The notes: generated from the letters alone by a model not told the origin. A DNA stretch of 63,062 nucleotides, filler included, from Octopus bimaculoides (GCF_001194135.2; 6 parts of 6 records of this genome joined end to end with filler, not necessarily neighbours in it); one strand, 5' to 3'; shown: positions 5,305 through 49,765, counted from the whole stretch's first letter. Numbers and translations: made by a program.

Positions 5305-5432
5305 GTATATTATTTACATTCGACAGGTATTTGTCCTCATCTTGTTTGTTGTTAACACGTTTCGGCTGATATACCCTCCAGCCTTCTTCTGGTGTCTTGG
5401 GGAAATTTCGAACCTGGGTTCTCATTCCTAAG

Positions 5433-5482
<50 letters not shown>

Positions 5483-5762
5483 TATTATTATTGTTCAGGT
5501 CACTGCTTGGAATCGAACTCGGAATCTTGGGGTTAAGAGCGCGGGCTACTAACCCCAAGATTCCAAGCAGTGACTTGAACACTAATAATAACATCGAAAA
5601 ATACTTTAGGAATGAGAACCTAGGTTCGAAATTTCCCCAAGACACCTGATGAAGGCTGGAGGGTATATCAGCCGAAACATTGTGTTAATAACAAACAAGA
5701 TGAGGACAAATATGCGTCGAATGTAAATAATGTACAGAATTCCTCATCTCTTAAATATAGAA
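5305..5762. mobile_element. Head-to-head inverted dimer of a tRNA-headed SINE-like element with a hammerhead-like tail
   Basis: 5305-5535 is the reverse complement of 5550-5735. B-box-like GAGTTCGATTCC on the minus strand at 5509-5520. (TAA)n tract. Hammerhead-like motif in each arm. Confidence 0.8.
5641..5686 (+). ncRNA. Minimal type I hammerhead ribozyme-like motif (helix III mutated)
   Basis: GACAC-CTGATGA-A-GGCTG(loop)CAGCC-GAAAC-AT-T-GTGTT. Stem I GACAC/GTGTT, stem II GGCTG/CAGCC. Confidence 0.65.
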
Positions 5763-6699
5763 TGAGTAGGTATATTTTAATGCTTTCTTTATAACTTGGC
5801 CAGTGTGTTTCAACTTTTGTCTCTTCCGAGAATTTTGCTAAAGGGACAGTAGTAAATACATTTAGGCAATTTGTAAGGAAATGATGAATCTTATATTGAT
5901 GTAGATATTTAGTGCTTTTTTTTTTTTTTTTTTTTTTGTAAGATAATTGTTAGTTCTCTCTCTCACACACACTGTTGTATTGACATTCTAGTAGGAATAG
6001 TTTTGTTTTTTATTTTGTTTAAAAGGCTCAAAAGAGAATTAACAGAGGGTATTTCTAGGAATATAGCACAGGTTAGTCCAAAGACTCTGGTGCTAAGGTT
6101 GCTTTGATTAACCTATTCTCTTCAAAAATTTGTGGCCTTGTGCCTTATGTGAGAAATTAAAATTATTATGATTATTATGATATTATGAATTGTCAGGTCT
6201 TTGGTATATATAATATTGTTTCTTATGTTAACACTTCCACAGGCCTGCAAGTAAGAGCTGTTCCTCAACAAAACACTCGAGGTGAGAGACTTGTAATGTA
6301 AATTAAATTTTAAAGAGAAAAAAATATTTAAACCCGTCTGATTCTATAATCTTGCTTAGAAATTGCTTTAATGTTTAGTGTTTACTAAATTAGTTTCCAA
6401 CATTTTAGGTTACTAACACCAAATAAGACCATATACATTTGCCACCCTATTTATATGTTCAGAGCATTAAGCTTATAAAACTTTCCACATCATGGAAGCA
6501 ATTTCAATTCTTTAAAATTTCTTCGTTATATTAAATATGTTAGTGCTCATCCTTACCAAACATTTTCTTATCATTTCTGACATACATGTATTGCCTTCTC
6601 TACAGCAAAAGGATCTGTTCCTACCCTTACTTTTATACTTTAACCCCTCAACACAACTTAAAACTACCTCCTTCTTGACTGAAGTTCCACTCAACAGAA

Positions 6700-6880
6700 G
6701 GCTGTCTTAACCTTGCAAGTTACATGGCAACCTCACTAGTGTTGGTGCCACTAATAAAACACTCAGTTCATTCTGTAAAGTGGTTTTAGAAACGGGATGC
6801 ACTCCTCCAATTCACCGAATCCTGTCAAGAGTCTAACCCATGCTAGTATGGAAGACAAATGTTAAATGATGCTGATGACT
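6700..6880 (+). mobile_element. RTE-3'-end-type short retroposon, degenerate
   Basis: Ends aacccatgctagtatggaagacaaatgttaaatgatg, same tail as the 7225-7470 copy. Confidence 0.5.
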
Positions 6881-7189
6881 CATTAGTTCTGGTTTTAATC
6901 AACATTTATTTTTTGAATAGAGTATCAATTTTTGTTCTAACAAAAAGTTTTCTTGGGGTTGGGATGGCGTTTGAAACCTCTGGTGATGTATTGAATAATT
7001 GAAATCTGCAGTATTACAAGTAACAATTGCAAATAATTTAAAATCAATTTATCAGTAGGCATACCACAAAACTCCAGATTTAATTTCCCTATGAGTACTC
7101 TGCACAAGTGTCTTCTACTGTAGCTTTGTGTTGGCCAGTTCTTTAAGTACAATAATTTGGTAGATGGAAACTGCAGAAGTCCATTGGAA

Positions 7190-7224
<35 letters not shown>

Positions 7225-7228
<4 letters not shown>

Positions 7229-7470
7229 CACGTAAAAAACACCATTTTGAATGAGGCCGTTGCCAGTACTGCCTGACTGGCCCTCGTGCCGGTGGCACGT
7301 AAAAGCACCCACTACACTCTCAGAGTGGTTGGCGTTAGGAAGGGCATCCAACTGTAGAAACTTTGCCTGATCAGATTGGAGCCTGGTGCAGCCATCTAGT
7401 TCACCAGTCCTCAGTCAAATCGTCCAACCCATGCTAGCATAGAAAGCGGATGTTAAACGATGATGATATA
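7225..7470 (+). mobile_element. RTE-3'-end-type short retroposon (partial copies also ~7765-7920 + and ~12850-13210 -)
   Basis: gttggcgttaggaagggcatcc...ccaacccatgctagcat...gttaaacgatgatgat tail recurs in the window. Confidence 0.65.
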
Positions 7471-7695
7471 TATATATATATAATTAGAAGTCAAAATAGC
7501 CTCATTAAGGAATAGTAATATCCAGTGAATTACTGGTTCATTGCCTAGTATATTTTATGAATAATAATATTCATGAAATAATAGGTCTAAATATAGATCT
7601 TGGTTTATAAATATTCAAAAGAAAATTTATTAATAGAATTTATTGTCTGCAAAAATCCAACATATACTCTTACAGCTATTAGAGAATATATATAA

Positions 7696-7753
<58 letters not shown>

Positions 7754-10052
7754 TTTGAAAATGTGTTGGTATTGGCGTTAGGAAGGATCTCTAGCTGTAG
7801 AAATCATGCCAAAGTAGGCATTGGAGCATAATGCAGTCCTTAAACATGTTGGATCCTGTCAAACCATCCAACCCATGCCAGCATGGTACGTGGACATTAA
7901 ATGAGGAGGATGATGATGATATATAACCTAGCAGTTCAACAGACAGATAAATAAAATAAGCACTAGACTGAAATACTGCTGTCAACATGACTACAATAAG
8001 TAATAGGTTTGTTTTTTGTTTTTTTTTTATTATTATTATTATTTTTTTGCACATGCACTTATTTACAGTTAGTTATTTTGTGGTTGGCAGGTTCGGTATA
8101 GCTTGTTTCCACCATGTTGTTTAACACCACCATCATCTAGGATTTAATGGGTCGCAACAATGTTTTTCCTACAGATGTTTAAGGTGGTCAGGTGGACATA
8201 GGTTACATCTATTTTGTGAATTTAGAAATGTTTTAACTTGGTCATGGGCACTGTCCAACTCCCACTCTAATTATTCTATATATGCTAGAAATAGCAGTTA
8301 ACTCTCCATTTAGTCACACCTTGATATCTTTAAAGAAAGATAAACGAACACAACAGATAATGTAGTTTTGCAAATGCTAAAAAAATGAAATGATCAGAAA
8401 GAAAATGGAGGGATAGTCATGGTAGGAATACCTTTAGTCCTAGTTCCTTTTGATCAGAGTTGACTTGAGTTTGTCCTTTTAGCAGAATTGGTGGAATCGT
8501 TTGAGCATCAGACAGGGTGTCTTATGATATGAGTTCCTACTCTTTACTTCTGAGTTTTAGGGAGGTACACTTAATCTGTTGCCCTGTTTAACACATCTAC
8601 CCTGGTCCTTGATGTTCCCTTTGCGGAGTTCACTCTGCTGTAAAGAATTCAGAGTAGCTCTCTAGTTTGAGGGTAACTTCCTTTCCCACCAGTTTCAGAA
8701 ACTCTGAAAAAGTAAAGGGTTTTAGACACTAGCCCTTTCCTCCTAAACTTAGTTTGGGGAAACAAAAAAAAAAAACCTATTAAGTAATCGTCGTGTGATA
8801 TTTCTAGAGTAATTCACATGACAGAGCATATATCTCTCTCCAAACTTAGAATCAGGGGAACTCTAGTGTTGCCTGGCTATCTACGCCACTCTACAGTAGA
8901 GAAAAGGTATAAAAGGTGCTTGGAACTGAGAGGAAGGGCCACTTTGGAGTGAGATGCAGGAGACACAAGAATTGCATTGAAGCTTCCAATATACAGCCTT
9001 ACCATTTAAGCCAACTGAAAATTATAGCATGTTTGTAATTACAATCCAATGATAAAACACTCTTACATTCTTTAGTTAGACTTTTTGTATCGAGGTACAC
9101 TTTTCCCATATGAAGTAAAGCTGCTTGTTTTATACCCATAATGCAGTGTTAATAGACTGGATTACCAATAATCCAGTTCTTGTAATTCTAACAGTCTTCA
9201 GGTTATCTCCCCACATATTATGTTACTATTTGCTGCATCTTGAAAGTATCTAATAATAATAATAATAATAGCAATACTTTCTTATTGGTAAGGGCTAGTC
9301 GGGTATTGTGTACATATACTAAATCAGCCTTGCATTTTGTTTGTCTTTGGCTTTCTCATAAATGCAGAGCTTATATAGCAGATAATAATAACCAATAAGC
9401 GTTTGCTAACAATGGTTGTCTTCAACTAAATACTAACAGCAAGCTATATTATTATTAACACCTTTTACCAACTCTAATTTGCTTCTTTTTAATCTAACCT
9501 TTTTTTTTTAATCCAATCTCAATAATCATTTTAGAAGAATTATATTTCTTTCCAACCCTTTGCAAAATATCCTCCAAGATAGGTTACCGTTGTTGTTTTA
9601 AAAAAAATAGATAATCTTCAGATCAGGCTACACGGCGGGTAGAGGTTAACCAATTAATGGCTTTTGTCATCGGACTTTTCTCCCAGACTTGATAATAGGG
9701 ATTAACTATTCTTAGTTGATATTTTTTAACCCTTCATTTCACTACACCCACCTACTTATGTTAATTAACATTGCCAGAATAAAGGAAAAAAATTATATAC
9801 ATTTTGTGTTCAAGTCCCCAGTACTGCACAATGTTATATGTTAGCCAACAGGACATTTTACCTGTTTGCTTCAATTTTTTTTTTTCTTTTTAATTTTATT
9901 TTATGGAGATATACACCTGTTTTCTGTAAACTTATCATTTGGAATACTGGTTTGGAGAATGATAAGTTCAAATCCGCTGCAGGTATTTTATTGTATTTCT
10001 AGAGGGAACTCTTTTTCTACATTGTCTCAGTTCACACAGCTGTTGTCAACAG

Positions 10053-10275
10053 GTATCAGAGCATCTGGAAATGTTACCTGAACTATCAGGCCATCTGGAT
10101 GTGTTAGCTTAACTCTTAGAAAGGCTGTGTCAAGTATCAAATCATCTGGATGTGTTTGCTTAACTCTTGGATCATCTGGAAATGTTAAGTGAAGTATCAG
10201 ATGATCTGGATGTATTAGTTTAACTATCAGATCATCTGGAAATATTGTCGAGTATGAGATTATCTACATGTGTTA
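10053..10275. repeat. Degenerate 30-nt minisatellite (CATCTGGA-anchored, alternating two unit types)
   Basis: catctggaaatgttacctgaactatcaggc / catctggatgtgtttgcttaactcttggat / catctggaaatgttaagtgaagtatcagat etc. Confidence 0.75.
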
Positions 10276-11813: not shown

Positions 11814-11845
<32 letters not shown>

Positions 11846-11892
11846 TATATATATGTATGTGTATATATATATATATATATATATACATATAT

Positions 11893-12057
11893 ATGATGGG
11901 CTTCTTTCAGTTTCCGTCTACCAAATCCATTCACAAGGCTTTGGTCGGCCTGAGGCTATAGTAGAAGACACTTGCCCAAGGTGCCATGCAGTGGGACTGA
12001 ACCCGGAACCATGTGGTTGGTAAGCAAGCTACTTACCACACAGCCACTCCTGCGCCT
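11893..12057 (-). mobile_element. tRNA-derived SINE family A
   Basis: Reverse complement of ggcgcaggagtggctgtgtggtaag...ggttccgggttcagtcccac...gaaagaagccc; multi-copy in the window. Confidence 0.85.
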
Positions 12058-13368: not shown

Positions 13369-13524
13369 AATAAATAAATATATATAAACCACTGTTTATA
13401 TAGTTACCTTGCAGTTGAGTATTAGATATAATGTTCAACACTCTTTGTATAGGTAACTAACCAGTACTTTCATAGGATTTAACTATCCCTGAATGAGGTT
13501 TGTAACCTTTATTTGTGCTTCTGT

Positions 13525-14160: not shown

Positions 14161-14283
14161 GACACCTGATGAAGGCTGGAGGGTATATCAGCCAAAACGT
14201 TGTGTTAACAACAAACAAGATGAGGACAAATATCCGTCAAATGTAAATATTGTACGTAATTCCTCATCTCTTAAATATAGAAC
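14161..14283 (+). ncRNA. Third copy of the hammerhead-like tail of the 5305-5762 element (G12 mutated to A)
   Basis: gacacctgatgaaggctggagggtatatcagccaaaacgttgtgtt; near-identical to 5641-5762; helix III ACGT intact. Confidence 0.65.
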
Positions 14284-14463
14284 TGAGGATATTATTGGTA
14301 AAATATAATCACTCTTGACTTTTAGAATCATTTTCTTTCTTTTTTTTTCTTTTTTCTTTTTTGTAAGTTTAAAAATGAGAATTTTTTTTTTCTCCAAAAT
14401 TCTTCATTATTAATTGGTTGCACTATTTTGAGTGAGTTTTGCAATGAGCATACTCTCCAAGAC

Positions 14464-17475: not shown

Positions 17476-17858
17476 GTGACTTTCCTACAAAAAGAAAGCC
17501 ATGTTTACACACACACACACACACAGTAATAGCAGTATTAGTAGATGTGTTGGTGGCAGTAACAGCTGTTGTAGTTTAGCCCCAGGTCAATTTGGATCAA
17601 ACAGACATATAATCAACAGTATGCCAGCCATGACCATCTTAGCATTTTTCAATCTACAGGAAACATAGAACCACAGATTTGAGGGAGATTTCATTACTAT
17701 TTCTAGCAGGACAAGTGATGACTTGAAGGGTTCTTTATTAACTCAGCAGACATAATGATAACAATAGTGGTGAAAAGGATTAGTAGAGACCAATATGACA
17801 TCTATGAAACTCCTGCAAACATCAGGGTAGAAGGAGGGTATGATAAAGTGGTACCTAC

Positions 17859-18006
17859 CTGGGTCACAGTGTGTATGTGGCACAACAAACACCTGAAGAT
17901 TATCTCGGTTATCCCAGTGGTTGGGTGCGTAGGTTATATTCCAACCTTGCTTCCACACACCACCATCAATGTTGTCGAATGGGATGACATCATAGGCATT
18001 GCGAAT
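17859..18006 (-). CDS. MAN2A: Golgi alpha-mannosidase II (GH38) internal exon: [50 protein letters not shown]
   Basis: DGGVWKQGW and VFVVPHxHxDPG signatures of class II mannosidases. Acceptor tattttcag, donor G|GTAGGT. 148 nt, phase 0/1; as I recall, this matches the equivalent vertebrate MAN2A1 exon boundaries. Confidence 0.93.
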
Positions 18007-18151
18007 CTGAAAATAGACATATTTCATTTGATTAATCATTCCTTCCATTAGTTCACTTTCTTAATTAGGTTTGTATAGTAGATTTTAACCCCGGTCTTCA
18101 GGTGTTATGAAAGAACTAGCAAGTCGTGTGGATCAAGGCCAATGCAATAGC

Positions 18152-22205: not shown

Positions 22206-22797
22206 GCAGATTCTCCAAATCTAATCTATTAGTGGCAGAATGAAGATTTGTAAGACATTCCAAAACTTCTCCACGTGAGACTCTTATGTGAATAGATGTA
22301 CACATTTGGGTATATGCATCGACAGTTCAACCAGCACACTGACTCAGCCACATATTCACAAACACCAGGAACTCTCTTAACTTAAAAATCTTGTCACTTG
22401 AACTCTCTCAAGAACTCAAATTAAATTCAAAGAAAAATCATACATATATACATATATATGTACATACATACACACACACATACACACATTCACACACACT
22501 CACACACTCATAAGTTAACATATTAACATAAGGCTAAGGATCAGTGAAAAAGAAAATACCTATGTTGAACTATAATCTATAATTATTCTATTCAGATTAC
22601 AAGTCCAGCTTTATACCTGTAATTATGGGGGTACTGAGATATGTAACACATTGCCTAAATGCCAATCTTGAGAAATTTGTTTTCTTAAAACCAGAAAGGA
22701 GAAAGCTGATTCGAAGACTACAGGTCCAATCCACCACTGGAACTGTAAAAATCTGTAAATCCAGAAGTTTATCATTTAAGTATATATGAGTATGGAG

Positions 22798-24302
22798 AAT
22801 TTTTTCTCTTTCGAATGATATAGGTGTTATATATCTTTCTACAATTTTAATGTGCAATTAATTCAAATGATTAGAAATTGTTGGCAAAATAAGTTTAAGA
22901 CTGTACCAAGATTATGCAAATTAATAAACCAAATGGCTGGTCATATGGCTGGTCATACTGCACTGTTTTGTTTAAAAATCAAGCATTGTTACACATTAAT
23001 TCACTATGTGAAATTGTTCTAGTATCATCCCAGTTACTAGATCAAAGATCATGTTGTTTCATCAGTAAAATGTGTCCATCATGAACATTAGCAAGCAATT
23101 AGGATGCAACTAGGATGCATTTAGGCTTGTGTTCAAGCATGGAATCTTTAACAAGCCACTGGCCAATACAAAGATCAGCAAAGAACAAGAGCTCTGAGAA
23201 AAACAACAGTATAGATGGATCAACGAATTCATAGGCTCTTTTAATGTAACTGAATGCTAGCAGCAGTCGACATTTGCAAGCAATTATCTGATGAAACTGA
23301 CATCAGCTTTATGCCATAAACTGTCAGAAACTGCCTAAAAGAATTTGGACTGTTTGGCTGGATCATTTGGAAGAAGCAGATAATTTCTGAGATGAACCGG
23401 TGGAAGTGGATCAAGTTTGCTAAAAGCCATATTGAATGGACGGCTGGAGACTGGTCAAAAGTTCTTTGAAGCGAAGAATCCCACTTCTGCATTTTTGGAT
23501 CAGATGGAAAGACTTATGTTAGATGCCATCCAACTGAAGAATTCCATCCTAAGTGTGTCAAGAAAATAGCGCAAGCGGGAGGTAGGGGAGTAATGGTGTG
23601 GGCTGTGTTCAGCTACTTATGTGTTGGTCCAATTGTTAAGGTTGATGGCAAACAGAACAGTGTAGGCTATCTGCAATTAGTAAATGAAAATGAGCTGCCA
23701 TATTTAAATAATCAGATGCCACTGCGATCTGTTTTCCAGCAGGATAATTGCACCGTTCATAAGGCTAGGAAAGTTTTGCAATATTTTGATCGCAATAATA
23801 TGGTGGTTATTGAATGGCCTCCACAGAGCCTGGATTTGAATCCAATAGAACATTTATGGAATTATGTTTTTAAAAGAGTTAATGCTAAAAAACCAACAAA
23901 TTTGTTCCAATTATATAATTTGATTGAAGAACATTCCAAGTAATTTTTGTGCTCATTTGTCGAACTCCATGTCCCATCATTGTAAGGCCATAATTGAAAA
24001 TAATGGCTATAGAACTAGATGCTAATAATAAATCATTTGTGCTGTAAATTTTCAGTTTAAACAAAATAATATTGGTATGGTCTTAAACTTATCTTGCCAA
24101 CAATTTTTAATCATTTCAATTAACTGCGCATTAAAATTATTCAAACTATAGAAAAATATATAACACCTATATCATTCGAAAGAGAAAAAAAATCTACATA
24201 AATTGTAAAAAGTAAAATAATTTTTATACAGTTTTGTTAAAAATAAATTAATGAAGGAATAGAACTGTCATAATTGTTCTTAAACTTATTTTGGCCTGTG
24301 TA
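22798..24302 (+). mobile_element. Tc1 (IR/DR type) transposon with degraded DD34E transposase
   Basis: FQQDN...WPPQSLDLNPIEHLW. Long inverted repeats 22798-22910 and 24073-24192, repeated aaaataagtttaag DR motif, right end ggcctgtg-TA; left tip missing. Confidence 0.85.
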
Positions 24303-26099: not shown

Positions 26100-27800
26100 A
26101 GCTGCCACTGGTAGTGGGGGAGCATGATAGCCATGTATTGAGAGGGCTTCTTAGAGGTTTGAATAAATGTAACAAAAGCCAAGTTTGACGGAAATATTAA
26201 CCATTTTTCATACTTTCTAGGGGTAAGCAAACAGGAAATAACAGTTGTTACCCAAATGCAAAAATCGTGTTACACAGGAATTGTGTATATCTACAAAAAT
26301 GTTACCCTTTTCCTTGGCTGTAATTAGAAGCGTAGTTGCAGATGTAACTCGAAGAATCTGTGAACTGTCATTAGATAGAGAGATATTCTTTGTGGCTGCC
26401 TTCCATTGCAATGAGGCATTAGCGAGGACTGGATTCCCTGAGAAGTTAGCATATATGGAGGATACCACACCCTGCTCACAAACCCAAAGAAAGTCAGAAA
26501 GAGAAAGATAACTTGGTTCAGTCCTTTGTTTAACCTAGAAGTTTCAACCAGCATTGCTATAAGTATTGTAAACTTTTCAACACCCACATCAAGATCAGTT
26601 ACTTCTGCTTAGACAACACCGCTTCTGACATGCATGCTACAATTGACACAAGCACACACTTTCACAGCCCTCAATCCACACGTCAACAAATAACTACTGA
26701 AATTCTGCCAAGTGCCCACTAGGAGGATCCTGCTTCTCAATGTTTGATGTCAACAGAGCCCTCCACGCACTCCGATGGCATTCCAAGAATCTAGACAAGT
26801 GGTACTCAACTGGAGTGTACATGGCCCTTGGAGGTCCTTATACGATTTTGTAGTTAAAATGTATCTGCAATAAATCGGTTATACTTTTAAAATATACAAA
26901 ATATTTTAACAATTTTTCGATACAATTTCTGATACATATTTAATTATAAAAATATAATAGGAATTTTTAAAATATTGATTGTGATCCAAGTAAAATTGGA
27001 ATTAGAAGGGGTCTATAAGTAAATAAATGATTGAGAACCACTGCTCTAAATGGTCATGACAGCCACTAACTTCAAAGCAAGATATACACAGCATTTGCAC
27101 TCCTTCAGGTATGTAGATAGAGAAATCTTCCCCTCCCTGTCCCGATTTATTTGGAGACTCCATATCCACTGGAATGACTTCCCCAACATTGAATGGTGTA
27201 TCATTGACAGGCCCCACCGTTACCACCTGGAACTTGCAATTGCCAACTCTGCCTCCACCTGAGATAACACATCCACCACCAACCTACAGTATCCAGTAAC
27301 AGGAAAAATAAACTATCGTATTGTTGCCACCAGGTTAAATGTTCTGTTAATGAACTTCAAGCCACCGGCAGCCAACAATCCAAATATACCACCATATACA
27401 AGGGTACGGTATTTAACCTCTGCACCCGTGTAGATTACAGCTCCATCCATCCTAACTATCCTGCCTTAATTTTTGTTGATCTGGCACCACTGAAATGCTT
27501 TAACCTTGCATGACTAAATCCGATTACTCTCCCCAAAAGACTGTTGTCACTAAAGTGTTAGTTACTCGCTGACCTATGACGACATATGTGGCATCAAATG
27601 CAATGAACTAGTTTAGTTGCTAACTAAACTACACCGCAGCTTCCAGGCATAGTGGCGACAACTGTCTACCAACATCCTGCCCACACATGTGGGCCTAAGT
27701 ATAAAGACAACAAGCAATGTTGCTTCCAGACCAATAACACCACATGGGCTGACTTATCCAATCGAGGCTTAACATCTAGAAACCGTCTTGAATTTGTCTC
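26100..27800 (+). mobile_element. Degraded Penelope-like element (RT C-terminus, GIY-YIG)
   Basis: RRICELSLDREIF...ALARTGF; MTATNFKARYTQHLHSFR...LSRFIW; homologous to 31250-31950. Confidence 0.75.
26797..27043. mobile_element. hAT/Charlie-like MITE inserted in the Penelope GIY-YIG region
   Basis: agtggtactcaac ... ttgagaaccactg termini; flanks atctagac/ctctaaat resemble an NTCTARAN TSD. Confidence 0.6.
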
Positions 27801-28736
27801 ATATCCCTTTACACTCTCTATGAAACTTTAAGTTGCAGACAGCTAAGTCAAACATTATATAATATATATAAATATATATATATATATATATGTATGTATA
27901 NNNNNNNNNNNNNNNNNNNNNNNNNNNNNNNNNNNNNNNNNNNNNNNNNNNNNNNNNNNNNNNNNNNNNNNNNNNNNNNNNNNNNNNNNNNNNNNNNNNN
28001 NNNNNNNNNNNNNNNNNNNNNNNNNNNNNNNNNNNNNNNNNNNNNNNNNNNNNNNNNNNNNNNNNNNNNNNNNNNNNNNNNNNNNNNNNNNNNNNNNNNN
28101 NNNNNNNNNNNNNNNNNNNNNNNNNNNNNNNNNNNNNNNNNNNNNNNNNNNNNNNNNNNNNNNNNNNNNNNNNNNNNNNNNNNNNNNNNNNNNNNNNNNN
28201 NNNNNNNNNNNNNNNNNNNNNNNNNNNNNNNNNNNNNNNNNNNNNNNNNNNNNNNNNNNNNNNNNNNNNNNNNNNNNNNNNNNNNNNNNNNNNNNNNNNN
28301 NNNNNNNNNNNNNNNNNNNNNNNNNNNNNNNNNNNNNNNNNNNNNNNNNNNNNNNNNNNNNNNNNNNNNNNNNNNNNNNNNNNNNNNNNNNNNNNNNNNN
28401 NNNNNNNNNNNNNNNNNNNNNNNNNNNNNNNNNNNNNNNNNNNNNNNNNNNNNNNNNNNNNNNNNNNNNNNNNNNNNNNNNNNNNNNNNNNNNNNNNNNN
28501 NNNNNNNNNNNNNNNNNNNNNNNNNNNNNNNNNNNNNNNNNNNNNNNNNNNNNNNNNNNNNNNNNNNNNNNNNNNNNNNNNNNNNNNNNNNNNNNNNNNN
28601 NNNNNNNNNNNNNNNNNNNNNNNNNNNNNNNNNNNNNNNNNNNNNNNNNNNNNNNNNNNNNNNNNNNNNNNNNNNNNNNNNNNNNNNNNNNNNNNNNNNN
28701 NNNNNNNNNNNNNNNNNNNNNNNNNNNNNNNNNNNN

Positions 28737-28770
<34 letters not shown>

Positions 28771-28773
<3 letters not shown>

Positions 28774-29950
28774 ATGAAAACATTTTAATTCAAATTCGTT
28801 GGTACACTTGAGTTTCAAGCATGATGCTAGTCCTCAGTCATGAAGAGTTTGAATGACAGAAGTTGATTGTTATCACTATAAAGTGGACTGTGATTGGTCA
28901 AGGAAGGTCATGTGGTGTCGTGGTTTGATGCTGGTTTATGGGTAACAGTCAGCTGGAAAATACCACATGGTGAACAGGAAATTGACCACGTCGAGGACAG
29001 AAAATAGACTATGTGACAATTAGGAAATGGGCCAGGTTGTTGGAGAGGGAGAAGTAGGAAGGGGCAGCATGTACAAATATATAGTTCTATAAGTAGTTTT
29101 GCGTGCATGTGTATATTGATGCAAACATATGTATATTGATGCAAGCATGTGCATCTGTACATGGGTGCACATTCACACGTATGCACACACACACAGGCTT
29201 GGATGAACACATGTGCACACACACATACACACACACATGCATGCACATACATGCACACACACATGCATATTCATTCATATGTACATATGTATATTCACAT
29301 GCACATATGCATGCATACCAGTGTCTTCACATACATGTATGTGCACATGTGCATTTGCACACATACTTGCATGAGTATACACCTGCAAAACAAGCGTTGG
29401 GGATTATTAAGCGATAGGAATTGGTAAGCGTTGGGGATTGGTATGCGTTGGGGGTTGGTAAAGTTGGGGATTGGTAGGTGGTGGTCCTGCTTATAGGGTT
29501 GGTTGGTAGCAGTGACCTTCGCGCAGGCAGTGCAGAGTAGCAACTGGTGCTAAGATGGTATATCCATGTTATCGGCAGTCAGAGTCCTGAAATTTGCCAG
29601 AAGGGCATACCTCTGGTGACAGCAGTATGATAAATCGTATTTCTTGTTGATGGATCCTGCAGGTTGTTGGAGGATATGCAATTTTTCACAGTTGGGGGCT
29701 CCAGGTGAATATGGTGAATAGTCCACTTTATGCTGGGTATTTCATCTCGGAGATCACGGAGTCTCCAGAGAAAACGAGACAGGGAAGTAGAGTTCTCTCT
29801 GTCCCTGGATCTGAACAAGTGCATATGCTGGGAATATCTTCGCTTGAAGTCATTAGCTGTCATACCCGTACAGTGCCTAGTAATGCCATTGGATGGTGTA
29901 AGGGTGTGGTTCTGTATACTGCAATCTTTGAGAGGCACAGGGTGGGGTTT
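28771..29950 (-). mobile_element. Inverted duplicate (pseudo-LTR-like) of the 3' part of the adjacent Penelope
   Basis: Reverse complement of ~31520-32680, including GIY-YIG coding sequence, the CA-rich tract and the terminal hammerhead-like motif. Confidence 0.85.
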
Positions 29951-29989: not shown

Positions 29990-32680
29990 TTTTTATATCT
30001 GTTTATGCATTTGCAATGAAGAGACAACCGCTACTGTACTTGTTGAGGAATATCCAAATACCTCCAAGGAAGATCAACTTGACGCGATTTACAGAGAAGA
30101 CAGAAAGTGTCATCAAATGCATGCACTTGGAGGCTTTCTTCTGTGAGAATTCATCCACCACTACATCTACAGATAAATTCGGCTTCAAATCCCGAAAGTG
30201 CACCCCATGTATGAAAGGCCTTGAGAACTTTGAGACCGACCTAAGGAGCATTGTAAAGAAGGTAAGGTTTTGGCATTATTCTAATCCCTTCCATAAATGA
30301 CGATGACCAGCATTAAGCAATCGTCCAACATATACACCATTGCAGACAAAACAAAGAACATTTATGAAATGAACACTTCCACACACTCAAGACTACTTAT
30401 AAGTGCCATCACCAAAACATACAAGAAAACCCTTTTTTTCACATACAATGATGTAAACACAGAAGCAAAGGAGCTAGCCACCCACCTTAATATCAGGGAT
30501 CACGTGGACTGCCTTAGTACGTGACCCCTCCCCCCATTTCCTATTACGCTTAAGGACTATAAGCCTAACTTCCACTCTAATCCCAAATGCAGGTTGATCA
30601 ACCCCTCTAAAAGTGAGATAGGTATTATTAGCAAACGCATTCTTGATACTATCAACTCTGATATCAGAAGAGCTACAGGGTTTTGCAGTATCAAGAATAA
30701 ATCAGCTTGTAGATTCACCCAGTTGGACTTTGTCTACTTCTACCCTTCCATATTTAATCCCTTCCTTCTGAAGGCCCTAACTTTTGCTGAGCAATATACC
30801 AACATTAGTGACCTTGATATCAGAATTATCATGAATGCTAGGAAGTCAATTCTGGCCCACAACGATTCATTCTGGCTAAAAAAGAAGGCAATCCATTGTT
30901 CAATGTTTCTATGGGGAGCTTTGACAAGGTTGAAATCATAGACCTCATCGGGTTATACATCTTGGATACTCTCAAGAGACATACCCACCAACACAGATTG
31001 GCCTTCTATTAGGACGACATCCTGGCTATCTCAAGCCATATGAACATCCACACCATGGAGAGGTTCAGGAAGGACTTGGTAAAAATATTTAAGGAGTTTG
31101 GCTTGTCCATAAGGATTACCACCAACCTGATTATGGTCGATTTCTTGGACGTAACCTTAGACCTCAGTACAGGCAAGTATTACCCATACAGGAAGCCTAA
31201 TGAAGATGCAGTATACAGCCACAAAAGCTCAAAACCATCCCCCACCCCACTGTAATTAGAAACCTGGCTTGGAGCAAGTTTACTGAGAAGCTGATGTATG
31301 TAGACAACCCCCAAACACCCTCTCTTCACTCCAAAAGGATTAGGAGGAGGAAAATTATATGGTATAACCCCCTTTCAACCTAGAAGTTTCCACCAACATA
31401 GCTAATTAAGAAACACTTCCCCAGAGGCCATAAGTATTACAAGCTCTTTAACCACCATAATGTCAAGGTGAGATACTCCTGCTTAGACAACATTGCATCT
31501 AACATCGCATGCATCAACAGATGTAAAAATGCACCCACACCATCCCCAACCACAACCTGCAACTGCTGAAACTCCACTAGTATACAGAGCCACACCCTCA
31601 CACCATCCGATGGCATTACTAAGCACTATATGGATATGACAGCCAATGACTTCAAGGGAAGATACTCCCAGTATATACACTCGTTCAGATCCAGGGACAG
31701 AGAGAACTCTACTTCCCTGTCTCGGTTTCTTTGGAGATTCCATGATCTCCCATATGAAATATCCAGCATCAAGTGGACTATTGTTGATAGAGCGCCACCA
31801 TATTCACCTGGCGCCCGCAACTGCCAGCTCTTCCTCCACAAAAAACTGCATATCCTCCAACAACCTGCAGGATCCCTCAACAAGAAATGCGACTTATCAT
31901 ACTGCTGTCACCAGAGGTATGCCCTTCTGGCAAATTTCAGGCCTCTGACTGCCAACAACCCGGATATACCACCTTAGCACTAGCTGCTACTCTGCACCGC
32001 CTGCACCAAGGTTGTCACTACCAACCAACCCCATGAGCAGGACTGCCATTTACCAATCCCCAACATTTACCAACCCCCAATACATACCAGCCCCCAATGC
32101 TTACCAGTTCCTAATGCTTATCACGAATGTGCATGTGTGTGTGTGCATGCACACTGGTATGCATGCACATATACATATGTACATAAGAAAGAATGTACAT
32201 GTGCATGTGTATTTATGTATGTGTGTGCGCGTTTGTCCAAGCATGTGTGTGTGTGTGCAAACGTGCACATATGTGCCCATGTACATATGTGCACATTTGC
32301 ATCAATATACACATGCACGCAAAACTATATGAGCGTAATTACACACCAACATATATAACTATATACTTGCACATGCCACCCCTTCCTACTTCCCCCACCA
32401 ACAACCTGACCCCTGACCCATTTCCTAATTGTCACGTAGTCTATTTCCTGTCCTGCACGTGTTGAATTTCCTGTTCACCAAGCAGTATTTTCCAACTAAC
32501 TATTACAATTATACCAACATCAAACCATGACACCGCATGACCTTCCTCAACCAATTGCAGCCCGTCTTACGGTGATAACAATCAACTTCTGTCATTCAAA
32601 TTCAACATGGCTGACAACTAGCATCATACTTGAAACTCAAGAGTACCAACGAATTTGAATTAAACTGTTTTCATGCATAC
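29990..32680 (+). pseudogene. Penelope-like retroelement, frameshifted RT plus GIY-YIG ORF and 3' region
   Basis: FGFKSRKC; ADKTKNIYEM; LINPSKSEIGIISKRILD; FYPSI; FLDVTLDLSTGKYYPYRKPN; LVYRA...MTANDFKGRY. Confidence 0.9.
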
Positions 32681-32733
32681 ATGTAACTTCCGCTAAATTG
32701 GTTGAGTGCCCTTCTTTCATTTGTCCACTCACT

Positions 32734-32767
<34 letters not shown>

Positions 32768-32770
<3 letters not shown>

Positions 32771-33288
32771 CAGAATGAGATAAAAAATCCAAGGCTGTGA
32801 AAGATTTCAGAACATTTTTAAAGAGAAGGTCTTACAGCTGTTTCCAGGATATTTTATATATCCCTTCATCGGAGACGGTGCAAGAAAAAGGTTAGACAAT
32901 AGTTATTCTAGAGAAGATATGAAATGGAGAGTGAAGTGGAGGAATGAAAACAGACGTGAGATATGCAGGGATATTATATCTGCAGTTCCATTATTGAAGC
33001 AGAATGGTGTATATATAAGTACATAAGGTACAGGAAACTGATATGTATACCATTCTGCTTCAATAATGGAACTGCAAATATAATATCCCTGCATATCTCA
33101 CATCTGTTTTCATTCCTCCACTTCACTCTCTATTTCATATCTTCTCTAGAATAACTATTGCCTAACCTTTTTCTTGCACCGTCTCCGATGAAGGGATATA
33201 TAAAATATCCTGGAAACAGCTGTAAGACCTTTTCTTTATAAATGTTCTGAAATCTTTCACAGCCTTGGATTTTTATCTCATTCTGTTA
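32768..33288. mobile_element. Near-perfect ~520-bp palindrome with a hammerhead-like motif in each arm
   Basis: 32768-33016 is the reverse complement of 33041-33288 with few mismatches. Motifs at 32829-32876 (-) and 33181-33228 (+) are identical. Confidence 0.9.
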
Positions 33289-33441
33289 ATTTTATATATA
33301 TATGCACACTAATATATGACCTATGTTGAACTCTCCATTCACATAATCACCAAACCTGGAGCTTAACTATAATCTGTCCATGGCACTTACTTAGCATTAC
33401 CTGACACCTTTGCGTTTTCTTGACACCATTACCTTTCATAA

Positions 33442-33487
<46 letters not shown>

Positions 33488-37772: not shown

Positions 37773-37937
37773 ACGACGGGCTTCTTTCAGTTTCCGTCTA
37801 CCAAATTCACTCACAAGGGTTTGGTCGGCTCGAGGCTATAACAGAGGATACTTAACCAAGGTGCCACGCAGTGGGACTGAACCCGAGACTATGTGGTTGG
37901 GAAGCAAGCTTCTCACCACACAGCCTTACCTACACCT
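37773..37937 (-). mobile_element. SINE family A
   Basis: Matches 11893-12057. Confidence 0.85.
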
Positions 37938-42890: not shown

Positions 42891-44614
42891 TGTCCTTTAT
42901 TTAGTTTGTAGTTATATTTAATCTATTTGCGACTCAGTGCCTGAAAACATTGGAATTCTATATATCGCTGGCAGTGAGATTTGGGTGATATGCAGCTAGC
43001 GGCTAGCTGACACTGAAGAGACGCAGTACGTAAAAATCACGTGATCTGGTTGTCCCGGTGCTCGTAGCAGGCTATTCTCGTCTACTAACAATATATATAT
43101 GTATGCTTTTATGGCCCATGCGTCCGTATGAAATGTGATCCTCGCAAGGTAAATACCGCAGTATTCGGCATTCTAACAAAACATCCACGATAAGTTAGAT
43201 ATGAAGATTGCCTTTTGGTATTAATACTGCTTCTGTCGCTAATAATCACACACACACACACATGCACACACAAGTATATGTATCTGTGCACGTGTGTATG
43301 AATCTATGCGTCTATATTAGATTATTCAAAATGTAAGTTAGTCCTTGAGCGCACAGTGCTCCTGAAAGTCAGCAATGGTCTTCCTCGGTCACGAGTGGAC
43401 GGCCATTATATTAGATTACAAGAGGCAAATGTAAAAAAAAAAACAACCTATTAAGCAATATGGACAAATTCTGCAGAGATACCATAAGGCATATGAGTTT
43501 AGAGAAATGTTAAAAAGTTACTCTAAAAATGATGGCTATATTTACTAACTGAATTCAGAATTAAAACAGAAGAATCTGTACATCCATTTAGGCGAAGATG
43601 GAAATAAGTTGCAATATATAAACAAAAGCATTGCAACAGATCGATACTGCCGAAGTACTGAAAATTGAATTCAATGTCATAAATAAGATGTTTGACATGT
43701 ACTTTAATATATATCTCCTTGTGTGTGAAATAAGAGTGAAATTAATTTCAGTAAAAAGTAGTTATGATTATGAATACAGAGAACGTGAACAAAGATAGAA
43801 AAGCCGCCGCTGTGCTCACAAATTTACATACAGCTGAAAAAAAGAAAAAAAAAATAGAGAAAGGCAACAACTCTGTTAGATGTACTGAACACATACAACA
43901 CAAGATGTTTTCAGTTCACTAAGACAAACCGCACTATACATTCTATGCAATTACGTACACTCCTGTAATAAGTTGTAATGCCATGTCACAACAAAAAAAA
44001 AAAAAACAGCACTAAAAGAAACACAAACTCAGTAAATTAAAAGGAACAGCAACCATCTTCTCAACAGAACTGAAAAGACCAAAACAACACAACTCAGAAA
44101 CAGAGATGTTCACCGGATAGTGTAGTTAAAATTCGCACGAAACTACAGGAAACCATCACCACCACTACCACCACTACCACCACTACCACCACCACCACTA
44201 CCATCACCACCACCACCGCCGCCACAAACAACAACAATTGTTTCTTTTATTTATTTTGTCACTTTTGTTATGTTTTTTTTTTGATAGACAGCTATTTCTG
44301 TGAAGATATTGTCAGAATACCTATAAGGATAAATACAGGCATGTTTTAGAAAATAGCGATACGAGAGTATGTAAATATTGTTAGAACATTTTCGCGCAGA
44401 ATTTCTTAACCTTGTAAATTTTTTTTCGACATGTATTCAAAGATTGTATTTGATTCTTTTTAATGGAAGACAGGAAAGTCTTGAAGTGCTTTCCAAACCA
44501 TGAATAATAAAAATAACAAAATCAACAAGAACGATGACAATGACAACTGCAACAACGGCGTCGTCATCATCATCGTCATCATGAACAACAACAACCATAA
44601 TAATAATTCTTTCT

Positions 44615-44920
44615 ACTATAAGCACAAGGCCTGAAATTTTTGCGGAGAGGGAGCTGGTCGATTATATCAGCCCCAATGCTCGGCGGAGTTTAAAATTAGA
44701 ATGTAAAGCCGAATGAAATGCCAGTAAGCATTTTATCCGACGTGCTAATGATTCTGACAGTTCACTGCCTTAATGGTTTCAAATTCTGGCACGAGGCCAG
44801 CAATCTTAAGGGGAAGAGAAGACGGATACATCGATCCCAATACTTGACTGGTACTTTACTTTATCGACCCCGAAAGGATGAGAAACAAACTAGACTTCGA
44901 TAGTATTTGAACTCAGAACG
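44615..44920 (-). mobile_element. SINE family D, rearranged
   Basis: gcacaaggcctgaaattt...atcgaccccgaaaggatg...atttgaactcagaac. Confidence 0.7.
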
Positions 44921-44949
44921 GTGCACTAACATTTCAGTTATAATATTCT

Positions 44950-45382
44950 TCTCTTTTACTCTTTTACTTGTTTTAGTCATCTTGACTGTGGCCATGCTGG
45001 AGAACCACCTTTAGTCGAGCAAATCGACCCCAGGACTTATTCTTTGGAAGCCTAGTACTTATTCTATCGGTCCCTTTTGCCGAACTGCTAAGTGACGGGG
45101 ACGTAAACACACCAGCATCGGTTGTCAAGCGATGTTGGTGTGGNNNNNNNNNNNNNNNNNNGGGGGGGGGGGGACAAACACAGACACGCAAACATATACA
45201 CACACATACATACATATATACATATATACGACGGGCTTCTTTCAGTTTCCGTCTACCAAATCCACTCACAAGGCTTTGGTCGACCCGAGACTATAGTAGA
45301 AGACACTTGCCCAAGGTGCCACGCAGTGGTACTGAACCCGGAACCATGTGGTTGGTAAGCAAGCTACTTACCACACAGCCAC
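44950..45382 (-). mobile_element. Composite SINE family A
   Basis: Full head plus 3' module in reverse orientation. Confidence 0.85.
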
Positions 45383-45980
45383 AATGCTTCTATTTATTTA
45401 TTTATTTAGACACTGAAGGTGATTACATTCACTTTCATTCGTACATGAAATTACATGAACATTAGGAGGGATTAAAAAAGCGTGTGGCAGACGAACAAAA
45501 CAACATTATACAAAGAAAAGAAAACGAGAGCACTGAGTCAGGGACGTTAACAAAGAAGGCAGGTTAAAATGACATGATAAATACATAACTAAAGCAAACA
45601 CAATAAATACAGCAAGCTATTATATTAAATAGACCAACCCACACACATGTGAAAACCTACCACTTAGGACAGGTGATAGCACCCCACCTCTTTGCCCACC
45701 GGCCACTCTTTACACTAGATTGGGTGCATCTAAAAGTTTCACTTAACATTCTCTGTTTGGAACGAAACAAAAACACCTCATGCTTTCTGGATATTCGTGC
45801 TTTAACTCATGATAATATCCTGGTACTATTTCTAAAATTCTCTCACTGTAGTATTTCGACCTTATTTGATTTTCTTTAACTTGTACATCGAGACTGTATC
45901 ATTTGCACCACGTATGTATTAATTTGTTCACAAGGTTCTAGTTTGTTTTTAAAAATGATTTAAATTTCTTATCATCATCT

Positions 45981-46352
45981 TTATTACTTCCGCCGTCATT
46001 TAGGGGGAGGTGTTGTTTTCAGTCGTGTTTGTTTGCTTTTTTGTCCGTGGACAAGATGTCTCAAGAACCACTGGATGGATTCGGATGACACTTTCAGGGA
46101 TCTTTGGCCTCGTAATTGGCACGAACTGATTAGGTTTTGGGATCGATCTGGCACTGGCCAAGAATTCTGGATTATTTTTCCTGTTTTTTACTTAACTTTT
46201 GAGAGTGGTCGGATTCATTTTTAATATTCTCGTTTGTGAGAGCATTCGAGTTTATTTCAGATATTCTCATTTTAAAAATCATCTCTGGCTGATCATTGAA
46301 AGGACGTTGGTGTTGCCTTGGCAGAGGTTTGCGCTCTCTGAATGCTCTTGTT
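45981..46352 (+). mobile_element. Non-autonomous Helentron-like (HINE-type) element
   Basis: 5' ttatt-acttccgcc and 3' ggcagaggt subterminal inverted repeat, GTTT microsatellite near the 5' end, 3' gcgctctctgaatgc hairpin-like motif ending in TT. Confidence 0.5.
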
Positions 46353-46958
46353 ATCATTATATTCTGGCATTTTACACATCTTTAGATCGGATTCGGCCTT
46401 CCTTTTCTACTGGATTCTCTTCTTTCTTTATTTCCCAGAGATTTTCACCGGCTTCCATTATGTCTTCATTGCTACTGAATGAAGGTTGGTGGAGGAATGG
46501 GGTCAGAATTTCGCTCGTCGGTTCCTGGGAGTGAGGACGAGGGGGACAGTCCAATTTCTCTTGGATCTGGAATCTGTGAAAACCTACCACTTGCTGTTGT
46601 CGCTTCTATTCACCTCTACTCCACTCGATCTTGAACTCACTATCACCGCTTATTGTTATGGGCCCAAGAGGAATTAGACAAGAAGAAAGAGAAATATCCA
46701 AAACTGGCTGATTTGGCTAAAGGAGAGATTGACTTCTCAAAATAATTGATTTCTTGGAGGGTTTTTTTTTACTTATATTTTGGTCTATCCAGGAAGAAAA
46801 AAGAAAAGAAAACAACTGTCTGAATAAATTGATATTTAGAAGAACTAATTTTGGGGACATCGAGTGAGACCAATCAGTTGGAAGTTGGCGGGGTTTACCA
46901 TTTGTTTCCAAACCAAATTTGGTAAATATCTATGGTTTATTGTATATTGACACTTCTT

Positions 46959-47023
<65 letters not shown>

Positions 47024-47098
47024 CAACAACAACAACAACGACAACGACAACGACAGCAAAACACCACCACCACCACCACCAACAATAATAATAATAAT
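46959..47098. repeat. Compound (CAG)n(CAA)n(GAC)n(CAC)n(AAT)n trinucleotide microsatellite
   Basis: Directly visible. Confidence 0.95.
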
Positions 47099-48174
47099 GG
47101 ATATGATAATTACAATAATACCATTTGTTTCTTTCTAGCATTGCCAATTCATACATAGAAAGGATTACAAAAATATTACAAACACGATTAGTGATTATAG
47201 ATAAATATACATATGAAACAAGTGTAACGGAAAATACATAATTTGCATTGAATGACATAGTCTAAGAAAAATATGGCCTCCTACACATACTGGGGTGGGA
47301 AGTCCTTGTTTGGGTCGGGTCAGAACTCACCTCAACTTTGATCACCTCTCACTGTCGTCTATCATTTTCTTTTGTGAACTGGCGGCTATGAAGTCAGTCG
47401 TCCCCAAAATCCCCTTTCTGCCCTGAAACACTAGTATCCTGGCTTTTCTTTCTGCAGCCCGGACGGGAGACAACACTGGAACAGGTCGATGCTCTTTGGG
47501 TCTTCGTGGGGTCATTAAGGCTTACATATCTCTAATAACCCACATCCTTTTATTCGTCACTGCTAACCAGAGCTGGTACAACATACTTGTACCGTACTTC
47601 TTAAGTAACAATCATTCAATATTGAACGTCGTGGCCAGCAATTTATATTCAAGCCATCGTGCTACACCGCTCAAAGTATTACGGCTTAAGCTTCTGAGAA
47701 GGTGCATACCACACCAGCTGGTCTACTTTTCTTCTTCAGTTTTGAATATCATGCATACAGTACCGTAATTTCTTCCTCGTTCAATAGAAGAGATATTGTT
47801 CTACATATCGGGCAGAGATGCATATAGTTGCTCCTTCCGACATAATAAGAGAGTCTGTATCTTTCAAAAATGTAAAGATATATTTTTTCCTTTTTCACTG
47901 ATCACTAAAGAACTGAGGCTCCACTACAAAGACATGTCCTTCGCAAAGTAATCCACGTCTTGTGTCTGTTTATTGGATGCTGCCTTCATCGTTCAATTAA
48001 AACTTTCCACTCACAACCTTCCTTTGGTGAAAAGAGCTTGTGTGTGTGCATGCGTATGTGTCTGTGTGTGGCTGTGTGCGTGTTTGTGTGTGTGTGTTTG
48101 CGCGCGCGTGTATGTATGTGTATGCGTGTATCATTGTCACTGTTGTTATTATTAATCGTGTCGTTTAAATTGTC

Positions 48175-48573
48175 GAGTGGCTGTGTGGTAAGTAGCTAGC
48201 TTACCAACCACATAGTTCTGGGTTCAGCTCCACTGCGTGGAATCTTGGGCAAGTGTCTTCTACTATAGCCTCGGGCCGACCAAAGCCATGTGAGTGGATT
48301 TGGTAGACGGAAACTGAAGGAAGCTCGTCGTATATATGTATATATATGTGTGTGTGTGTGTTTGTGTGTCTGTGTTTGTCCCCCTAGCATTGCTTGACAA
48401 CCGATGCTGGTGTGCTTATGATCCCGTCACTTAGCAGTTCGGCAAAAAAGACCGATAGAATAAGTACTAGGCTTACAAAGAATAAGTCCCGGGGTCGATT
48501 TGCTCGACTAAAGGCGGTGCTCCAGCATGACCGCAGTCAAAATGACTGAAACAAGTAAAAGAGAGTAAAAGAG
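48175..48573 (+). mobile_element. Composite SINE family A
   Basis: Head, (TA)(TG)n spacer, 3' module ending gaaacaagtaaaagag repeats. Confidence 0.85.
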
Positions 48574-49600
48574 ATAAGAGGAACACTATTTTGTTTGTGA
48601 AATATTTGTATTTCGCTAAATTTGTATTTTTTCCTTGATTATTATCTGTAAACTTTAGATGTGTTTCTGCACGGCCTACCTAGGCAGTTAGTTTACGAGT
48701 GGAAGGCTATCTTTTACCAGAAATTACAGCCTTCTTTTTTCCCCAAATAGGATTAGGTAACATAAGCAATTAAATTCCTGACTTATGCTGAAAGAAGGTC
48801 CACATTACTAAGCAAGTTACTTGAACATGGTAACAATATGGGGAAAACGAGGCGAAACGCGTCAAATTGTCTCAGCATAGTAATGAGGATGATGGTAATA
48901 ATGATGATAATGATGATGAAGATGATGGTTTATTTTTTATTGGCTGCAAAGTCGAAGATGTGAGGAAGTGTACAAAGGAAGAAGATTAAAGAAAACAAGG
49001 AAAAAAAAAGTAACATTGGGAGTTTTATCTCCAGTGAGATCAATGAGCAACAATAAAAATACATTAAATAGATAACAAGGGATAATAAGTCGATAATAAT
49101 GGAGTTAAAGTGAAAGAGATTCTTATCTTGTTAGTGTTAGAGAGATTAAAGGGCTAAAGAACAATCGATGTACAAGACTGGAATTTTAAATCGAAAGTTA
49201 AAAATCAAGAAAGCGGGAATTTTTTTGTTAATTGTAAATGTAACAATTGGTATTTAATTACCAGTATACGAATATAGCATTTTTTTACACATTGATGATT
49301 CCTTGTTCTGAGAAAATAATATTTGATGAAATATCTTCAACGTTGTAATATTTCCTTCAATTATCTTTTAGGTCATCTACACNNNNNNNNNNNNNNNNNN
49401 NNNNNNNNNNNNNNNNNNNNNNNNNNTTAATTAATTAANNNNNNNNNNNNNNNNNNNNNNNNNNNNNNNNNNNNNNNNNNNNTTATGATATAAATATAAA
49501 CTGTGAGAACGACCCTTAAGGAATCTAATTAATGATCTCCTAAGGTAAGTTCTTATGCTATATTGGTAACGGTTGCTACATCCTCTGGGAAAATTATTAT

Positions 49601-49642
<42 letters not shown>

Positions 49643-49716
49643 TGCTGCAACATTAAAAACAGTCATTGCACACATTCGTTGAGATGAGCAAACTCTACAA
49701 CCCTGGTGTCAGTAAG

Positions 49717-49765
49717 ACCCGCTGAGGATGAACTAAGGGTATTTCGAAATCACGGTGATGCGGGT
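49717..49765 (+). ncRNA. Hammerhead-like motif (ATCACGGTGAT helix III; G at the cleavage position)
   Basis: ACCCG-CTGAGGA-tgaactaagggtatttc-GAAA-TCACGGTGAT-G-CGGGT. Confidence 0.45.

Follow-up and report, generated by a model that had tools for sequence, protein, structure and literature searches.

Type I hammerhead motifs in Penelope-like and retrozyme-like repeats of Octopus bimaculoides, and a tRNA-like candidate promoter in a Poseidon-type element

The window considered here is the whole 63,062-nucleotide (nt) stretch of Octopus bimaculoides DNA (GCF_001194135.2) that was analysed, six pieces of a 2.34-gigabase animal genome joined end to end, in which a sequence-only reading had reported ten minimal hammerhead ribozyme motifs. 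We are confident that nine of the ten are type I hammerheads, that they belong to five repeat families (A to E) and six insertions, and that the insertions were likely made by the enzymes of Penelope-like retrotransposons (PLEs). As part of the same joint reading, families A, B and C are the terminal repeats of protein-coding PLEs, and families D and E retrozyme-like units without an open reading frame (ORF). Because the pieces are joined and the motifs stand on at least four contigs (C9, C28, C7 and C6), finding ten in one 63-kb window is not the property of any locus.

Results

Insertions, families and the hammerhead fold

The coordinates and sequences of nine motifs were right as first given. 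Those at 5641, 5354 and 14161 belong to family A, those at 33181 and 32829 to B, those at 32608 and 28800 to C, that at 43006 to D and that at 49717 to E, and the 27757 site falls in a sixth family, F (Table 1). Self-comparison reduces the supposedly separate motifs to six insertions, since each of the pairs 5354/5641, 28800/32608 and 32829/33181 represents one inverted insertion with two arms, and the motifs at 43006 and 49717, previously joined as one ATCAC(G)GTGAT family, fall into two unrelated families. Each of the five hammerhead families is dispersed in its own genome, with first-look candidates numbering 2112 (family A), 2957, 970, 196 and 383, figures that are lower bounds and not copy numbers. 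From each family search 20-30 of 40 scored loci were taken, and three duplicate loci were removed before alignment; the repeat search of the window itself was dominated by microsatellites and runs of N.

Family consensuses built from these genome-wide copies, as the sequence-only reading had proposed, restore a hammerhead in A, B, C, D and E, and the family majorities support both the minimal type I layout and the palindromic helix III that it described. Canonical core boxes and a UH cut site are present in the majorities of A, C, D and E and are intact in 24/30, 11/25, 7/20 and 11/23 copies, respectively. The family B core, otherwise intact in 20 of 24 copies, is canonical except for U4C, which is found in 22 of the 24, and 23 of them carry one more G ahead of G12. 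The core lies between helices I and II, the latter weak in C, and helix III is self-complementary in the family majorities. Our main descriptor, a type I core allowing U4C with a near-loopless helix III, matches 43 of 122 copies (A 21/30, B 17/24, C 1/25, D 2/20, E 2/23), with no match on the antisense strand of the A-E copies and none in shuffles. On the whole window it marks three sites, against a shuffle mean of 0.1, while a stricter initial descriptor gave no perfect and two one-mismatch matches (shuffle mean 0.25).

The older two families, D and E, have cores better conserved than their flanks (p 0.001 and p 0.003, respectively), and three pairs of the family D helix II carry double changes. 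A near-majority D copy scores 22.1 bits (E 0.0013) against Rfam RF00163, below the 34-bit cut-off, and a family A copy gives no RF00163 match; in the Rfam scan of the window, the 150 matches listed of 190 include no hammerhead family, only low-complexity microRNA-type matches. In computed folds helix III alone forms no stable hairpin, its self-duplexes range from -1.7 to -12.9 kcal/mol, and the minimum-energy folds of single copies lack the active hammerhead fold, which homodimer folds give in part. The family-majority ribozymes are predicted to have weak cutting activity, either as dimers that pair through the palindromic helix III or when assisted by protein. The paired motifs of the window are on opposite strands and face apart, and so cannot be each other's dimer partner in one transcript.

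Seven of the nine copies in the window carry lesions relative to their own family and are predicted not to cut, in keeping with the decay already suspected of most copies. This decay does not extend to the pair with 33181, whose odd core is fixed in family B. The tenth motif, at 27757-27792, had been called a decayed hammerhead. None of 20 family F copies fits the descriptor there, and the family majority has no core at that place; the hammerhead of family F lies about 60 nt downstream, and its 5' half is lost from the window copy.

Coding and non-coding families

The families had also been described as several independent non-autonomous ones, which is wrong for three of the five, because A, B and C are the ends of coding PLEs and only D and E lack an ORF; the proposed link to PLEs and retrozymes is itself supported. 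One of the first 30 family A loci extends upstream into an ORF for a reverse transcriptase (RT) with a GIY-YIG-type endonuclease, and in another family A copy the RT is recognised as PF00078 (E 4.8e-10). The single ORF encodes a PLE-type RT (DKG, YVDD) together with a C-terminal domain of the GIY-YIG type carrying CCHH and no zinc-finger linker, the endonuclease motifs having been identified by eye, as Pfam gave no endonuclease call; four of the five PLE proteins submitted to Pfam, decayed Hydra-type fragments included, had no match. Among loci picked by the family A ORF end, 28 of 30 (the query copy included) continue for at least 30 nt into a tRNA-like segment, beyond which most show an (AAT)n tract, then the hammerhead, then a tail. 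Ten of 30 loci picked by the 5' part of the ORF reach back into the same tail, which passes unbroken into the N-terminus of the ORF, placing the hammerhead inside the ORF start. The start codon is predicted just upstream of the hammerhead cut, at 5612 in the sense arm of the window. Terminal repeat, inverted 5' copy and tail are all present and copies end at two fixed 3' sites, an anatomy that points to a Penelope/Poseidon-type PLE.

A stand-alone short interspersed element (SINE) was considered for family A and rejected because ORF-bearing copies were found, and no separate non-coding SINE family distinct from a coding partner emerged, head, hammerhead and tail all belonging to the coding element. 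Where ORF-bearing copies reach the 5' repeat, 8 of 10 begin 28-74 nt downstream of the predicted cut (L263, L265, L267, L268, L280, L282, L283 and L285). The change of G16.2 to A seen at 5641-5686 is common to 8 of 30 family A copies. As a separate observation, hammerhead position N7 (U in 21/30 copies, A in 8/30) is the third base of an Asp/Glu codon of the overlapping ORF, at 5651-5653 in the window.

Families B, C and F appear to be Hydra-clade PLEs, judged by DKT, CxCx5C, a C-terminal endonuclease and (TA)n wherever these are preserved. Upstream of the family B hammerhead lies a long untranslated region (UTR) and then, in 5 of 30 loci picked by that upstream UTR, a Hydra-type endonuclease with a CxCx5C linker. 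The ORF remains of family C contain DKT and, compared by eye, resemble Hydra-1_Obim, and family F resembles the family C protein in 8 of 20 loci. All three insertions have TA flanks; as F, C and B all end in (TA)n, the insertion target of the Hydra clade (PMC8557442), they lie side by side in one stretch.

Families D and E, by contrast with the ORF-linked A, B and C, are tied to tandem or permuted non-coding units. The tandem period of D is 341-346 nt, the 406-nt unit of E is read across its own junction in many of 23 copies, and no PLE ORF stands in register in copies of either. The short ORF-less unit, the type I hammerhead and the tandem or more-than-unit copies fit retrozymes of the kind without long terminal repeats (non-LTR). 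The ends of family E copies L081-L103 favour two points of the 406-nt unit, about 90 nt from each other, resembling the two starts of a PLE RT.

Table 1. Hammerhead-bearing insertions of the window and their parts (positions counted from its first letter)
Family	Feature	Position	Strand	Detail
A	Inverted arm of solo terminal repeat	5302-5535	-	Poseidon-type PLE; ends at the shorter of two fixed 3' ends; holds 3' half of tRNA-like segment with B box 5509-5520, (AAT)n tract, broken hammerhead
A	Hammerhead, broken	5354-5396	-	U4 to A; 3-nt deletion at cut site
A	Sense arm	5531-5763	+	tRNA-like remnant 5531-5576 that has lost its B box; then (AAT)n, hammerhead and a tail reaching the longer of the two fixed 3' ends
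A	Minimal hammerhead	5641-5686	+	Core intact; G16.2 to A breaks 4-nt helix III palindrome
A	5'-truncated copy	14161-14286	+	G12 to A in hammerhead 14161-14206
F	Decayed 3' part of Hydra-type PLE	26400-27856	+	Endonuclease end, 3' UTR; boundaries approximate
F	Claimed tenth motif	27757-27792	+	Ordinary family F 3' UTR, not a hammerhead
F	True hammerhead, 3' half	27822-27837	+	Retains cut site, GAAA box and 9-nt near-palindrome; has lost helix II and the 5' core
C	Inverted 5'-truncated arm	28763-29920	-	Hydra-type; hammerhead 28800-28840, core letters intact, mismatches in helices I and III
C	Main arm	30000-32736	+	Frameshifted RT and C-terminal endonuclease remains (about 30000-31980), 3' UTR, hammerhead, tail
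C	Hammerhead in main arm	32608-32648	+	G8 to A; then tail of about 50 nt and (TA)n target
B	Inverted arm	32753-33020	-	3' end of another Hydra-type element; hammerhead 32829-32876 matches family variant
B	Sense arm	33037-33445	+	Tail of about 155 nt in (TA)n; hammerhead 33181-33228
B	Hammerhead	33181-33228	+	Fixed U4C, extra A after A9, extra G before G12, 8-nt palindromic helix III
D	Unit of tandem ORF-less repeat of about 345 nt	42923-43246	+	Hammerhead 43007-43052, G12 to A, C11.1 to A
E	Most of a circularly permuted ORF-less unit of about 406 nt	49638-50005	+	Hammerhead 49717-49765, 9-nt helix II deletion, A17 to G

The tRNA-like segment of family A

About 150 nt ahead of the hammerhead, the family A terminal repeat holds a tRNA-like segment, overlooked in the sequence-only reading, with A and B boxes and an anticodon-type loop, strict A and B boxes being found in 17 and 14, respectively, of 30 ORF-end loci. 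Aligned with 21 real tRNA predictions of the same genome it scores 46, against 34 for the best of 1000 shuffles. The tRNA-like head is too degraded to be called as a tRNA, either by ARAGORN in 30 family A loci or by Rfam in 5 whole loci. Of 30 loci picked by the 3' part of family A, 21 reach the segment, where 17 stop a few bases from its 5' end and 4 read through; another 30 loci, from a head-only search, were kept out of this tally because their query held five fold-back-junction bases, favouring fold-back copies. Head-bearing copies L152, L156, L158 and L173 end in or just after the (AAT)n tract, lack the hammerhead and resemble plain tRNA SINEs.

The RNA data are unstranded, possibly from a related species, and come from two runs of a single study, with about 6% of each used. 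Depth falls 2.1- and 3.0-fold across the 5' border of the segment in the two runs, and 344 and 288 fold-back reads, respectively, turn at the same base of that border. Neither run shows a pile-up of read ends at the family A hammerhead, the reads being fragmented and unstranded and hence uninformative on cut ends.

Runs of four or more T on the sense strand (T4), which would terminate RNA polymerase III (Pol III), are depleted throughout family A. Eighty copy segments (83 kb, not independent) contain 26 where 93 are expected, with no site in more than three segments, whereas runs of three or more T are at expectation. The family A majority has no T4 in 2,726 nt; a synonymous shuffle expects 2.7 (P 0.034), and a free-codon null gives P 0.003. 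As a control, a Neptune-like PLE of the same genome with similar T content has 16 T4 in 3,087 nt, and Hydra-type ORFs have 2.0-5.5 per kb. The control comes from a further abundant PLE family with a zinc-finger linker, seen at L093:2245-2868 (-) and in L292-L321.

Other features of the window

An open frame at 17743-18060 (-) reads like an exon of what we take to be a Golgi alpha-mannosidase. A remnant at 22791-24200, presumably Tc1/mariner-like, contains pieces of a transposase and has inverted ends at 22791-22915 and 24066-24200. A SINE-like family of very high abundance is present at 11895-12047, 37773-37925, 45230-45382, 48175-48330 and 59223-59378, its copies being 85-95% alike. A 364-nt direct duplicate, 99% identical (53824-54187 and 54822-55185), flanks an assembly gap and is probably an assembly artefact.

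Discussion

Overall, inverted arms, two fixed 3' ends and AT-repeat targets are seen, an anatomy that can be read against what is known of PLE biochemistry. By extension from the anole element (PMC11167929), the enzyme would nick AT-rich DNA and reverse transcription would start inside the RNA, at two sites downstream of the hammerhead; an early stop of the RT, seen as 5' truncation, followed by fold-back would give the head-to-head pairs. Earlier publications already describe PLE hammerheads and their opposite-strand pairs, animal retrozymes and a Hydra hammerhead of octopus, and the hammerheads of the five families are octopus members added to well-described classes.

Family A invites a more specific proposal. 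Coding retrotransposons are taken to use RNA polymerase II (Pol II), or in the case of R2 read-through by RNA polymerase I, and Pol III is left to non-coding SINEs. The boxes, the tRNA likeness and the pile-up of copy ends suggest that the family A tRNA-like segment likely acts as an internal Pol III promoter, in which case family A RNAs would begin just ahead of the segment, and copying from the first start of the RT would yield SINE-like solo repeats such as that in the window. Since no Pol III terminators interrupt the element anywhere along its length, the coding RNA may come from this promoter as well, a matter on which our judgement stands just short of even. The full scheme is one that we put forward tentatively and with rather more reservation than conviction: family A would have captured a tRNA promoter in its terminal repeat, be transcribed by Pol III from end to end, have purged terminators from its 2.7-kb unit, make SINE-like copies of its own end and have its uncapped RNA translated, with the hammerhead cut turning that RNA from a message into a template. 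In viral RNAs, translation without a cap can be promoted by ribozyme cleavage (PMC13725137), and by analogy this is a possible route for an uncapped family A message, though the first in-frame ATG lies upstream of the cut.

Several observations weigh against this proposal. The tRNA model score of the segment is weak (10.8 bits, E 9.2), and no parent tRNA was matched to it, the sampled genes being Ala, Arg, Thr and Lys. The T4 result concerns one family consensus. First-look counts of ORF-end and tail copies are similar (1844 versus 2112), with no large excess of short copies, and of the two ORF-bearing copies whose 5' repeat extends past the hammerhead, neither reaches the tRNA-like head. Finally, the segment has a small native palindrome at its stop site, so that snap-back alone could give the pile-up.

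That palindrome is also a ground for a competing account, which we consider unlikely though it deserves a serious hearing: Pol II transcribes the element, the segment is a SINE fragment that was captured in its 3' UTR and has no live promoter, and copies stop there by snap-back of the cDNA. The palindrome has 5 bp and a 2-nt loop, and its position is precisely where many copies fold back. As in other SINE tails, an (AAT)n tract closes the segment, whose tRNA fold is degraded, and four of the 21 copies read through it. Yet L004, L007, L013, L018 and L027 start a few bases from the tRNA 5' end without any fold-back, an RT stalled by a tRNA-like structure should stop on the 3' side of it, and the absence of T4 over the whole family A element is left unexplained. 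For these reasons we continue to favour a working Pol III promoter in family A.

Whether the hammerheads cut is a separate matter. It is improbable, in our view, that the folds are vestigial or kept for a non-catalytic role (protein binding, the geometry of RT starts or the start of translation) and that no cutting occurs in vivo, even though the published experiments lean that way: hammerhead mutants of the anole element PAc leave insertion in vitro unaffected, its hammerhead activity being dispensable there, and no anole RNA-seq reads end at the cut site (PMC11167929), while 8 of 9 Xenopus retrozyme dimers are not cleaved (bioRxiv 10.64898/2026.07.22.740005). The weakened cores or helices of families B and C would also suit such a role. 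It sits poorly, however, with six unrelated families (A-E and F) in which the catalytic boxes persist together with a helix III that is self-complementary and differs in sequence, and with the eight ORF-bearing family A copies that start past the predicted cut as copies of cleaved templates would. Those starts are a possible footprint of cleaved templates, or of circular ones copied for one and a bit rounds, and joining at AT repeats could also explain them.

The assignment of the nine motifs to hammerhead-bearing PLEs and retrozyme-like units must itself absorb, besides these experiments, some adverse findings. The full descriptor is passed by just 1/25, 2/20 and 2/23 copies of C, D and E and by 0/20 of F. 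The cores of A, B and C are no more conserved than their flanks, and stem covariation is absent from their copies, these families being too young or neutrally decayed; that of D is modest (0.175 versus 0.145 +- 0.014, equalled in 10/500 shuffles, a control that ignores relatedness). Family C has a helix II of 3 bp with a U-U closing mismatch, family A is predicted to cut after U, and the U4C of the family B core is a known natural variant whose activity in vitro is reported as considerably lower (PMC3088659). The clade labels of the PLE families come from motifs and likeness and not from a tree.

It is very improbable that all the families are independent non-autonomous ribozyme elements, as the short, ORF-less state of most sampled copies and the lack of a linked ORF in D and E might suggest, since upstream of A, B, C and F the sequence passes into PLE ORFs and the contiguous ORF-bearing copies refute the idea for A, B and C. 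Chance matches in AT-rich repeats, the right explanation for 27757 and one to which the lack of perfect strict-descriptor motifs in the window and of a hammerhead among the listed Rfam matches might seem to lend weight, can be dismissed for the other nine, because the family majorities restore the motif on one strand only and shuffles give none.

If the proposal is true, a coding element driven by Pol III would unite an autonomous element and a SINE in one sequence, which would be unusual, and would prompt the question of how translation proceeds without a cap. It would also make the role of PLE hammerheads testable, since in family A the predicted cut would part the candidate promoter and the start codon from what remains of the ORF. 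The literature searched, which left most subscription journals, Repbase and Dfam outside its scope, yielded neither a tRNA-derived segment in a coding PLE's terminal repeat nor Pol III transcription of a coding retrotransposon, and the available part of PMC13282606 makes no mention of such a segment. Family B, for its part, offers a natural U4C and extra-G core fixed in a successful family.

Comparison with known systems

The closest general likeness is to the metazoan PLE hammerheads (PMC4209133), with which the octopus motifs share the type I layout, short helix I, long helix II, extra base after A9 and palindromic 15.2-16.2, as well as many families per genome, close opposite-strand pairs and mostly truncated solo copies. 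The fixed U4C and extra G before G12 of family B are not among the variants in the portion of that paper available to us, which describes no tRNA-like segment. The Hydra-clade PLEs, which include Hydra-1_Obim of Octopus bimaculoides (PMC8557442), have in common with B, C and F the (TA)n targets, the inverted 5' copies, a near-palindromic helix III and, as far as they survive, motifs of the DKT and CxCx5C type. The octopus motif listed there for Hydra-1_Obim has a 1-nt loop in helix III and cuts after U; the hammerhead sequences of B, C and F differ from it, and these are thus other families, B also differing from the Hydra-1_Obim group in a 3' UTR of well over 1 kb.

Families D and E resemble metazoan retrozymes (PMC7229834; bioRxiv 10.64898/2026.07.22.740005) in their ORF-less units with one type I hammerhead, their tandem or more-than-unit copies and their PLE-style inversions. 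They differ in a helix III that is a 10-11-nt palindrome and in their short arrays, which are old, with 72-87% identity to the window copy. The 406 nt of family E is just above the 170-400 nt range given in PMC7229834, in whose main text, as available, the word octopus does not occur.

Family A is most like the Poseidon element PAc of the anole (PMC11167929): both have a hammerhead over the ORF start, two fixed 3' ends that form the tail, AT-rich targets, and an RT with a C-terminal GIY-YIG domain and no zinc-finger linker. The available text on PAc reports no tRNA-like segment or Pol III promoter, whereas family A has the segment and lacks T4 runs. Its other relative in design is the SINE-like Sm-alpha group of schistosomes (PMC6765202), which likewise combines a Pol III promoter, or in family A a promoter-like segment, with a type I hammerhead in one repeat unit. 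The Sm-alpha elements, however, are non-coding tandem repeats, while in the octopus the promoter-like segment sits in a protein-coding element.

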